A stretch of DNA of 64,000 bases from an uncultured Verrucomicrobiae bacterium (GTDB lineage Bacteria > Verrucomicrobiota > Verrucomicrobiia > Chthoniobacterales > UBA10450): the NCBI GenBank assembly GCA_963815455.1, contig CAWFGO010000001.1:800001-864000 (forward strand). The letters are read 5' to 3'. The number at the start of each line of letters is the position of its first letter. Within the stretch, counting starts at the first letter, position 1. The notes under the pieces are model-generated. The model was not told the origin of the DNA, made no database searches, and saw only the letters and a program-made list of their open reading frames with translations. Made by a program: the position numbers and the translations under genes. This document shows positions 19,391-64,000 of the stretch, one piece after another.

Positions 19391-19513
19391 GTGGCGAGAA
19401 GGTTTGTCGGATGCTACCCGATCCGCGCCTAAGTTTGAATCTCGTTTGTGCTGGTAACGACCGCCAGAAGAAGAGAAGGGCGCCTTCGTTTCCGAAAGCG
19501 CCCTTCATATTTA

Positions 19514-20027
19514 GATGGCGGTAAGCCGAATTCTGTCCTCCGAATTTCTTCGGAGCGATGATCATTTATCTCACCCCGCCGAGGCGGGACGCCCGGCGAA
19601 ACCGTGACCGGCGGTCAGCAGCCTTCGCATAAAGCTACGGCTTGCCAAGTAGACCGCCGCTACAGCATGGCCATGATGCGACGATACCCGAGGATCATGA
19701 CCCCGAATTTCTTCGGGGCAGGCGGACCGGCTGTCCTCCCTCTGTTTTGTCTTGCACCGCATGGGGTTTTTCGTGCCTCGCGAATTACTCCGCGAGCGGT
19801 GAGCTCTTACCTCGCCTTTTCACCCTTGCCGTTTCCCAGACACGGGAAGCTGTCAGCTTCCCCTACAGTTGTAGTTGCCAAAGAACCGGCGGTCTTTTTT
19901 CTGTGACACTTTCCGTCACCGCGATTTTTCAACCGTGATGCCCGCGTATTCTACGCGGCATGCTGCCGTATGGTGTTCGGACTTTCCTCTGGCAAATCTT
20001 GCGATTCACCAGCGATCATCTGCCATC
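19514..20027 (-). ncRNA. rnpB: RNase P RNA (type A), unusually long (about 514 nt)
   Basis: Minus strand: GAGGAAAGTCCG, AGTGTCACAGAAAA, GGGTGAAAAGG, GGTAAGAG, AAACCCC, GCAAG, AGATAAATGA, ACAGAATTCGGCTTA; P1 gatggc/gccatc. Confidence 0.95.
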
Positions 20028-61565: not shown

Positions 61566-63124
61566 TCAATCCACTCGCGATCGCACTCATGAATTCGCCG
61601 AAATCTTTGCCATTGCGGGCGGCCTGATTGAGCGCGGCCAGCCGAGCATCGATAGCGGCTTCGGGAAAAGCGACCCGACGGGAGCTGCGATTCGTTCGCG
61701 AAAACAATTTCGTCCCATTGGATTGACGAAATCTCGTCGTTGAACCGTGCCACCGCCCGGCCGCGGAAGAATGCGCGCGTCGTTTCCGGCGGGTTGAAGA
61801 TCGACAATTTAATGTCGTCTTCGGTCGGTGAACCGGCGCATGGAGTCCTTGATGCACAAGCTCGTAATATAGGCCGCGATCAAGATCGATATTGTGATAT
61901 TCCAGATCGATCGATTGCAGCCACGGATCGGTCCAGGACAGCTTTTCTTCCTCCTGCAAGGCGTTGAGCAGAAATTTCTTGGCCGCCCAATCGACCCGGT
62001 CGCGCGCCGACATCGGCATCGCGCTCGAGATCGTTGAGAACGTTTTCCCATTCCCGCAAAATCCATTGTCGATCTTCGTCCGCGACGATGCTTGCCGCGC
62101 CGTAGGTCGGCGGCGACCGAAGCGGGTCGATCTTGCTCGCGGCCCGCAAATAAATTCGCTGCACATCGATGGCCGAAATTTTTCGACCATCTTTCAGTTC
62201 GATGATCCAATCGTAAGTTTGATCGCGGCTGATCGATTTGTTGGCATCGATCGGCTGGGCGATTTCGAGCTGTGGCGCTTCGCCGCGTTCGATCAGATCG
62301 AGCACGATCGCGGTGGTCCCGATTTTCATGGCGGTGGCCCATTCGCTCATATTCGAATCGCCCAGAATGACATGGAACCGCCGGTAGCGACTGGCGTCGG
62401 CATGCGGTTCATCGCGGGTATTGACCAGCGGCCGGCGATTCATGGTGTCGATGCTCACCAGTACGCTGAAAAAATCCGCCCGCTGGGAGATTTGATAAAC
62501 GCCCGGCTGGCTCGCGGCGCTCTCCGCTTCGATGCCCATCTTGCCGGCGCCTCCGAAGATTTGGCGCGTGATCAGAAAGGGAAGAATGCCGTTGACGATT
62601 CGGTCCCAGGGCAAATCGCGACGCATCAGGTAATTGTCGTGGCAGCCGTAACTGTGTCCGGCAAAATCGGTGTTGTTCTTGTAAAGACGAATCTCCTGGC
62701 CAGGCGGCAATTTCAAGTTTCGGCGGCGGGCGCATTCGGCCAAAATGCGTTCACCGGCCTTATCCTGGGCCACGATTTGCGGCAGCGTCGTGCATTCCGG
62801 CGTGGAATATTCCGGATGCGCATGATCGTTATAAAAACGGGCGCCGTTGGAAAGAACGAGGTCGCTCTTGATCTCCTCGAAACTCAATCGGCGGCTTTTA
62901 TCGATCTCATAATAGGCCGATTCGTCTGTGTCCTGGAGCAATTCGCGGGCACGAAAACCGCGCGCGTCGAGATGAGGATCCTCCAGCTCGTAATCCCATT
63001 TCATGTGCGCCCCGTGCTCGGTGTAACGCCGCACCAGCTCGATCGATTCCGACACCACATCGACAATCTCCGCGCCGGTCACGGTGATTCCGTATTCGGT
63101 CTCCAGCCCGAAGACACGTTTCAT
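61566..63124 (-). CDS. dop: Pup deamidase/depupylase Dop (PafA2); frameshifted, 3' end approximate
   Basis: GLETEYG, Dop-loop WDYELEDPHLDARGF, NGARFYNDHAHPEYSTPEC, KNNTD, GCHDNY, SQRADF, NTRDEPHAD, RFHVILGD, DWAAK, DLEYH, PPETTRA. Confidence 0.9.
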
Positions 63125-63159
63125 AGCCTACCGACGCCTCGCGTGCGTCGCCCGATCGT

Positions 63160-63699
63160 CTGTAGGGGAAGCTGACAGCTTACCCCCGCTGGTCTATTCT
63201 CTGTAAGGGAAGCCGACGGTTTCCCCGGCCCGTTAATCAAGTCCAGGTAGTACGGCCAATCTTCGGCATTCTGCACGAATCGTGCCGCACTGGATTGTCT
63301 TTCACATAAATCCATTTGCTCCACAAATTTTCATCCGAGCGCAGCAGGCGATCAAAACAGCCACGCTGCCATTCCCGTGACTGAGGTCCGAGCCGCTCCC
63401 GCAATGCCCGTTTGAATCCGTGCGAAAAATCTCCAAACGACAGATTCCGATCCTCAATTGGCGCCACGATCCAATGCGCGTGATCCGGCATCACAACGCC
63501 CGCCAAAACCTGCCATTTCAGCAATTGTGCGATCGTCGTTTTGATGGCATCGAACACTTCACGGTTCGCCAAAACGGCGCGCCGATCCCTCACGCAAATA
63601 GTCACGAAACAAATAATCGATTTCTCCCAGGGAAGAAGAATCGCTGGCAATCTCGGCGGCTCGGCCATAGGCACGGGAAGCTGTCAGCTTCCCCTACAG
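63160..63699 (-). mobile_element. REPtron: RAYT gene flanked by inverted GTAG-type REPs (63160-63186, 63201-63226, 63672-63699)
   Basis: ctgtaggggaagctgacagcttaccc, ctgtaagggaagccgacggtttcccc and cacgggaagctgtcagcttcccctacag. Confidence 0.85.
63237..63668 (-). CDS. REP-associated tyrosine (HUH/Y1) transposase; probable frameshift before the C-terminal EDWPY
   Basis: FVTIC, MPDHAH (HUH), WQRGCFDRLLR, YVKDNPVR; EDWPYY in the adjacent frame. Confidence 0.88.
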   Translation of the reverse strand: MAEPPRLPAILLPWEKSIICFVTICVRDRRAVLANREVFDAIKTTIAQLLKWQVLAGVVMPDHAHWIVAPIEDRNLSFGDFSHGFKRALRERLGPQSREWQRGCFDRLLRSDENLWSKWIYVKDNPVRHDSCRMPKIGRTTWT

Positions 63700-63735
63700 G
63701 GATCGCGCAGCAAAGTCGTTGAGAACGTGTGCTCA

Positions 63736-64000
63736 TTAAATCACGCCCGAAGACGGTTGGGCCGATTCCTTCCCGGGCCGGATCGGCGCGATCTTGACCA
63801 CGTTCTCCGGATCGTAATCGATCAACTTTAACCAATCCTCGGTGACATCGCTCGGCGGGAAAATATCGTTCTCGATATATTCGGCATCAAAGGCCACACG
63901 CAAATCGTTTTCGGTAATGCCTTCCTCCATTCCGCTGGCGATCGAGCGCTTAATCGCCGCCGCTTTTGCCCGTTCCACAATCGAGGCGATGATCGCGCCG
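63736..64000 (-). CDS. arc: Proteasome-associated AAA ATPase ARC/Mpa, C-terminal fragment
   Basis: GAIIASIVERAKAAAIKR...EYIENDIFP...EDW; upstream of dop; only the last 88 residues or so are visible. Confidence 0.7.
   Translation of the reverse strand, partial: GAIIASIVERAKAAAIKRSIASGMEEGITENDLRVAFDAEYIENDIFPPSDVTEDWLKLIDYDPENVVKIAPIRPGKESAQPSSGVI

Follow-up and report, generated by a model that had tools for sequence, protein, structure and literature searches.

How does a short repeat that accompanies a transposase gene come to lie within the gene of an essential ribozyme, and how is it kept and spread there? The question is raised by a stretch of 64,000 nts (hereafter the window) from a Chthoniobacterales genome, referred to as G000, of 3.62 Mb and 90% completeness. 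In this window, 28 nts of rnpB, encoding the RNase P RNA, are identical to a repetitive extragenic palindrome (REP) located beside a RAYT gene. The origin of this insert and the distribution of filled and empty alleles were followed through the family of G000, which is probably, judging from sequence, the Ca. Udaeobacter family.

A GTAG-type REP at the tip of P12

The rnpB gene occupies 518 nts of the minus strand (19510..20027) and is the sole match to the covariance model RF00010 in the genome. Its membership in the type A RNase P RNAs is established by a full-length match (cmscan, 196.5 bits, E 4.4e-62, model positions 1-367 of 367, gathering threshold 100) together with the conserved regions. 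A single rnpB and a single rnpA are present, and a profile search of the 90% complete genome gave no PF08745 protein-only RNase P. The RF00010 alignment places the 28-mer (19841-19868) as an insertion between ACAGAAA and AAGGGUGAAA, at the tip of helix P12 (19824..19892, minus strand), in agreement with an earlier note on this DNA, which had assigned it to this variable helix. The cmscan alignment and the constrained and free folds agree that the base of the stem is intact, while the tip is predicted to form a three-way junction. Compared with the short alleles of relatives, a foreign segment of 43 nts (19831..19873, minus strand) stands in place of the about 8 nts that form the 3′ strand of P12 where the tip is empty. 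This segment contains the repeat, named REP-A (19844..19866, minus strand), which is 23 nts long and is preceded by CT (19867-19868). Read on the RNA strand, the 28-mer consists of CT, GTAG, a perfect stem of 8 bp closed by a 3-nt loop, and 3 further letters.

REP-A has the features of the GTAG-type REPs, as the earlier note had recognised. The GTAG lies directly 5′ of a short palindrome, the repeat is dispersed in many copies above chance (29 sites within 4 substitutions of the 24-nt core, 11 of them exact, against none in three block shuffles) and the gene of a cognate Y1 HUH transposase (63237-63668) is surrounded by inverted copies, one on the left and two on the right. At the 4-substitution threshold, the sites form 24 clusters, of which 19 are singles and 5 are pairs. 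Inverted doublets, the main form of REPINs, are hence not the main form of REP-A, and the P12 copy is a single, although decayed partners may be missed. Nor does it resemble the RPE or MITE elements, of 100-150 bp with terminal inverted repeats, REP-A being 23 nts long within a foreign segment of 43 nts. A CT precedes the GTAG in 57 of 78 ordinary copies and at 11 of 18 P12 junctions, some junctions having T instead of CT.

The copies at 19841-19868 and 63672-63699 are identical over 28 of 28 nts, as first reported, with no exact extension on either side. These are the only two exact copies in the genome, which contains 5 copies at no more than 1 mismatch and 24 at no more than 5. However, 25 of the 28 letters belong to the core of the family, a 24-nt part of which is exact at 11 sites. 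Taken alone, the exact match is therefore a poor guide to the donor copy.

All 19 REP-A alleles that were folded keep the base of P12, with the REP hairpin folding on itself. In G000, the imported flank is predicted to pair with the 5′ strand of the host. The predicted folds also show another small hairpin 5′ of the REP, in many cases closed by a GNRA-like loop. Whole-gene MFE folding misses the pseudoknots of RNase P and was therefore set aside. The insert is also covered by metatranscriptome contigs from three studies, all derived from relatives and not from the strain of G000. One contig (X16, record 1) covers 19801-19903, differing at 5 positions and by 1 gap, two others (X17, records 9 and 10) run across the insert from about 19803 to 19893 and a fourth (X8, record 25) is exact over 19836-19893. 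At least 31 letters on both sides of the insert are present in the X16 contig only, and carry-over of DNA is possible in RNA libraries. Among public sequencing runs, none contained more than 0.25 of the words of the G000 strain, and four runs compared with the whole rnpB gave only pieces from relatives. Misassembly, which had been named as a way for the claim to fail, was consequently judged from other assemblies and from the RNA-library contigs, and it is not borne out, since both carry the insert.

The RAYT-A gene at arc-dop and a likely donor of the insert

RAYT-A (63237..63668, minus strand) has as its neighbours arc, which encodes the proteasome ATPase, on one side and dop on the other. 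It contains the HUH motif HAH and a tyrosine in WIYVKDNP, and its likely start is the ATG at 63668. Between the left REP-A (63672..63699, minus strand) and this ATG lies a leader of 6 nts with CT at its end, whereas the two right-hand copies (63160..63225, plus strand; 1 and 4 substitutions) are inverted. The open reading frame (63237-63674, minus strand) matches the RAYT model NF047646 with an E value of 1.1e-17 and 64.3 bits, under the curated cut-off of 80, with the HUH and tyrosine motifs present; a Pfam search with it gave no match. Its conserved C-terminal motif runs on in another frame, which is due to a genuine frameshift or to an error of long-read sequencing. In the window, from 61880 to 64000, the flanking genes are those of the Pup-proteasome system (arc ATPase and dop), and dop also seems frameshifted near its 3′ end, possibly by long-read error.

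The genome contains 18 RAYT-like matches, of which RAYT-A alone is flanked by REP-A, which upholds the assignment of the P12 repeat to the RAYT of the window. The RAYT at C3:533987 is flanked instead by doublets of a second GTAG family, REP-B. Four RAYT-like domains lie in frame within long housekeeping reading frames that look like carB, alaS, metH and recG (C1:1471007, C2:124529, C3:170821 and C5:91207).

The REP-A core occurs in 92 of 201 family genomes, with a reversed control near 0, and the oriented REP-A pattern was found in 5 of 15 genomes of the family of G000 against 0 of 136 others of the order. Orthologues of RAYT-A, at 60% identity or more, are present in 21 of 50 chosen family genomes and in none of the 18 among them without the REP-A core. 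G001, G016, G036 and G061 contain REP-A copies and have no RAYT-A match at this identity. Among the 13 orthologue loci listed with their neighbours, 12 are at the arc-dop site with the same flanking layout as in G000 (for G011 on the upstream side only), the exception being G079, and all five other genomes looked at show remnants or empty sites at arc-dop.

The case for a RAYT end as the donor comes from the flanks of the insert and not from the identity of the 28-mer. A stretch of 35 nts (19838..19872, minus strand), comprising the REP with its 5′ and 3′ flanks and a CT at the end, is exactly that found at the left end of the RAYT orthologue of G013, a member of the sister genus, while the match to the RAYT left end of G000 itself is exact over 28 nts. 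Among all fetched loci, the 35-nt stretch was found only in the rnpB locus of G000 and in L328. The first 6 nts 3′ of the P12 hairpin match at 5 or more positions in 5 of the 20 left ends of RAYTs, but in only 1 of the 101 other copies compared (from G000 and a partial sample of ten genomes and other loci). Both the RAYT left ends and the P12 alleles are related by descent, so this contrast amounts to evidence for about one event. Within G000, the left copy of RAYT-A is the best of 16, and it matches at 30 of 31 nts. The shared flank has its CT end just before the ATG of RAYT, and CT stands before the GTAG as well. The tie to the RAYT-adjacent copy is thus stronger than had been claimed from the 28-mer, as the 3′ flank too resembles RAYT left ends, although pairing in the RNA may have shaped that flank. 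As described in the parts of two reports consulted, the TnpA-REP enzymes of E. coli and S. maltophilia cut between C and T on the 5′ or the 3′ side of the REP and also transfer strands (PMC3333891, PMC8266576). This activity makes a CT-bounded piece of a RAYT left end a plausible donor.

Distribution and probable spread of the filled P12 alleles

The P12 anchor was common to at least 116 stretches, the named records being mostly Chthoniobacterales, Ca. Udaeobacter and Spartobacteria MAGs. In 355 family genomes, P12 was long in 27 and short in 160, with G333 and G342 holding both forms, giving 185 readable genomes, while 170 fitted neither pattern. The short count takes in the unpublished genomes G015 and G235; the unpublished G003 was scanned too, and none of the three was used otherwise. 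The 27 long alleles comprise 16 with REP-A in forward and 2 in reverse orientation (G198 and G099), 3 with a different GTAG hairpin at the P12 tip (G257, G261 and G087; L179, L180 and L182), which has no match in G000, 5 with a short non-REP extension and 1 other. REP-A is therefore present in P12 of 18 of the 185 readable genomes, in addition to G012, which lies outside both patterns, and about nine in ten are without it. The short non-REP extension (L172, L173, L178, L187 and L189, from G184, G220, G066, G342 and G365) has an AACU-type loop, as in the junction hairpin of G000, and adjoins carriers on the tree; it may represent either a precursor or a remnant.

The carriers are spread over nine genera. 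In the comparison with sister genomes that had been proposed, G001, the sole other species of the genus of G000, has a short P12 without the 28-mer. Short alleles are near-identical across genera and the basal genera sampled have a short P12. The left junction of G000 is common to G331, G373 and G376, which are about 80% identical to it in rpoB. This distribution, together with the longer match to the G013 end (35 versus 28 nts), does not support the view that colonisation was recent, and the recurrence in nine genera and in two orientations likewise speaks against a one-off event.

The distribution was compared with a tree built from rpoB, in which carriers were over-represented among the 77 rows (there was no rpoB match for G198, G257, G261 and G363, and G340 was not included). 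On this one-gene species tree, reduced to 74 rows by leaving out G333, G342 and the outgroup, the 16 forward carriers require at least 10 changes versus 14.7 in shuffles, and 1 of 500 shuffles was as low. The forward carriers hence keep some phylogenetic signal. However, their monophyly is rejected on rpoB in a 32-row subset (p-AU 3.5e-6), as is the grouping of G000 with G331, G373 and G376 (p-AU 3e-53). Two different rnpB copies occur in some MAGs, including G333 and G342, so contamination of MAGs does exist. Udaeobacter-type rnpB contigs also sit in records named for other phyla, likely by misbinning (G333, G342 and G303; L051, L093, L106 and L124).

A RAYT-A match was found in 11 of 18 P12 carriers searched and was missing in 7. 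Four carriers were inspected: G012, G175 and G376 retain an internally deleted remnant of RAYT-A, and the arc-dop site of G142 is empty. The P12 copy thus outlives its enzyme. The earlier note had named, as evidence against its reading, a 28-mer that is conserved P12 sequence in relatives lacking this RAYT and REP family. This is partly the case, as the insert persists in three genomes where the gene is a deleted remnant and in one where it is absent from its site.

These observations are probably best explained if the P12 REP is a tolerated passenger, copied by RAYT from its own left end in an earlier lineage and then spread between genera by recombination. RAYT would nick single-stranded DNA at the two CTs that bound its left REP and, like TnpA-REP in vitro, join the resulting piece into rnpB. 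The insert would be retained because the REP folds on itself and the imported leader pairs with the 5′ strand of the host P12. A few insertions, at least one forward, at least one reverse and at least one by another GTAG family, would have given rise to alleles that were then moved by recombination over short patches, with the conserved parts of rnpB to the left and right as anchors. The ribozyme would work unchanged.

Alternatively, in an extension of the view of the earlier note, P12 could be a hot spot into which the RAYT of each lineage inserted REP-A independently, recently so in G000, the same target and the same donor giving the same junction. Such a history appears unlikely, although the polyphyly of the carriers on rpoB, the several junction types, the two orientations and the use of the same tip by a second GTAG family would all agree with it. 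G078 and G095, which are very close relatives, differ in their P12 junctions, and the RAYT copy of G000 itself matches 30 of 31 nts, both of which also favour repeated local insertion. The loop of the P12 REP is often that of the RAYT REP of the same host (GAC in G000, G217, G373 and G067; GTT in G095), though not in G028, G072 and G319, and this agreement fits local re-insertion or conversion equally. Independent insertion accounts poorly for the g10 carriers, in which the flanks of the insert do not match the RAYT leaders of the host, and for the better fit of the G000 insert to the RAYT end of G013 than to its own. Moreover, 5′ and 3′ junction letters are both common across genera, the insert is found with a dead or absent RAYT, and the RAYT of G000 may itself be frameshifted.

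A role for the hairpins in the ribozyme is less probable still. Selection would then keep or spread REP-derived hairpins that make the fold more stable or provide a tertiary contact or a site of processing. The pairing of the flanks with the host strand and the second small hairpin 5′ of the REP are in line with such co-option, as is the P12 expansion of Thermodesulfatator, which affects processing and complementation according to the part of the report available (PMC9945441). It is hard to reconcile, however, with the absence of the insert from about nine in ten readable genomes, the variation in orientation, family and junction, and the decayed REP-A copy in P12 of G142.

A history in which one old insertion, present in the ancestor of the family, was lost many times over is very doubtful. 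RAYT-A is apparently ancestral at arc-dop and often lost, the flanks are related across genera, and the short ACAACTGT-type extensions that adjoin carriers on the tree could be remnants. But in filled alleles the 3′ strand of the empty tip has been lost, so that simple excision cannot restore the short allele, and the non-carriers seen nested among carriers have an intact short allele, near-identical to that of other genera. The reverse and other-family inserts would in addition need separate events, and the basal genera sampled are short. Finally, an assembly artefact or chance similarity is extremely improbable despite the frameshifts typical of long-read assemblies in G000 and the lack of its strain in public runs, given 18 other assemblies with REP-A at the P12 tip, three of them with the same left junction, and the RNA-library contigs from three studies, which together refute it at the level of the family.

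Hairpin modules of rnpB and comparison with known systems

Other peripheral helices of the G000 rnpB carry repeats as well. REP-B forms the tip of the first P18 hairpin (19609..19665, minus strand), with its loop replaced by a nested repeat, C (19617..19651, minus strand). At up to 2 substitutions, repeat C occurs at 24 sites of the genome, most of which lie inside other hairpin repeats. A palindrome like repeat D forms the tip of P17 (19701..19718, minus strand), a near copy of which forms P19 (19538-19555). Repeats C and D (24 sites and, with a loose pattern, 99 strand matches, respectively) are mostly found within the loops of other hairpin repeats, for example at C1:472778, C1:840346 and C1:971313, as if they targeted hairpin loops. 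At C1:173895-174350 of G000, two partial copies of tRNA-Met, in which repeat D takes the place of the anticodon arm, flank the intact gene and a short reading frame; the short reading frame presumably encodes a GIY-YIG nuclease. P18 is absent and replaced by 3 nts in G031, G012, G024, G118, G072 and G066 (L001, L003, L012, L169, L170 and L178).

REP-B is present in P18 of 21 of 71 tree genomes, requiring 18 changes versus 18.2 in shuffles, hence without phylogenetic signal. A donor signature for it was sought among 59 copies in G000 and none was seen. Pairs of near-identical modules from different genera number 27 for P19, 14 for P18b, 10 for P9 and 33 for P3, whereas for the P12 tip, P14 and P17 the clustering of modules on the tree was chained and uninformative. 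Some of this likeness can be ancestral conservation, yet several alternative types are each scattered, and near-identical modules scattered in this way may be read as exchange of alleles at the level of single helices. A large recent transfer of rnpB can be dismissed, as the core is not nearer to that of the junction-sharers, whose upstream gene has an identity of no more than about 75-77%. Outside the P12 tip, the rnpB of G000 is no closer to the junction-sharers than to others. A broader proposal, offered tentatively, is that the outer helices of RNase P RNA draw on a pool of swappable hairpin modules shared in this abundant soil family, which domesticated RAYTs would feed, P12 specifically from the CT-bounded left end of the RAYT gene itself, and whose modules would cross genera by short-patch recombination.

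Repeats in RNase P RNA genes are already known and the insert itself is no surprise. STRR repeats in P12 of rnpB were reportedly described by Vioque in 1997 in heterocyst-forming cyanobacteria. They resemble the present case in being genomic repeats inside rnpB and differ in being short tandem repeats with no hairpin REP and no HUH transposase. In Rickettsia, palindromic elements (RPE) of 105-146 bp occur in the genes of tmRNA and of the M1 (RNase P) RNA and were read as neutral (PMC2229807, on Ogata et al. 2002, consulted in part). As in G000, a genome-wide palindromic repeat lies inside the gene for RNase P RNA, but the Rickettsia elements are longer and their transposase is not named in the consulted part of that source, whereas G000 has a 23-nt GTAG REP, an identified RAYT, family-wide polymorphism and apparent exchange.

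P12 is sometimes dispensable (PMC2858038, in part), and its expansions can be tolerated and even processed (PMC9945441, in part). Thermodesulfatator indicus has a type A RNA that works and in which, as in G000, the tip of P12 carries additional sequence, but there the segment is cut out in vivo and a repeat origin is not given in the part consulted (PMC9945441), whereas the RNA-library contig of a relative of G000 runs through the insert. Insertions at the P12 tip are also noted, with no repeats named, in the consulted part of PMC12974513. GTAG REPs inside genes were described in Opitutus terrae, of the same phylum, Verrucomicrobiota (PMC3733652). These lie in protein-coding genes, and the terms ‘RNase P’ and ‘RNA gene’ have no occurrence in that article.

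The Group 3 REPtrons, including REP-Sm of S. maltophilia and TnpA-REP of E. coli, are also among the closest systems. REP-Sm, as given in extracts of three reports, has GTAG, 23 nts, an 8-bp perfect stem and a 3-nt loop, like REP-A (PMC8266576, PMC3333891, 10.1101/2021.07.10.451892). Their RAYTs are located at a fixed site with inverted REPs on the flanks, as RAYT-A apparently is, a likeness drawn from the REP and the layout. RAYTs at fixed sites and singlets as remnants of REPINs have both been described (10.1101/2021.07.10.451892, PMC3116915, each in part). In contrast to those systems, REP-A is mostly single (19 of 24 clusters), one copy lies in the gene of a catalytic RNA, and the 18 RAYT-like genes of G000 have different repeats. 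A literature search, with thin coverage of subscription journals, turned up neither a REP associated with a RAYT in rnpB nor the swapping of helices in the Ca. Udaeobacter family.

Beyond the known cases, the enzyme can here be named, there is a candidate for the donor site, and alleles with and without the insert form a series across the family. Two points thereby become testable, namely the unit moved by RAYT with its targets and the origin of expansion segments in structured RNAs. The case also cautions that the peripheral helices of rnpB are poor phylogenetic markers in this family. If the proposal of a shared module pool holds true, the mobile unit of a RAYT can be its own left end and not a REPIN doublet, and there would be a traceable mechanism by which an essential ribozyme gains expansion segments.
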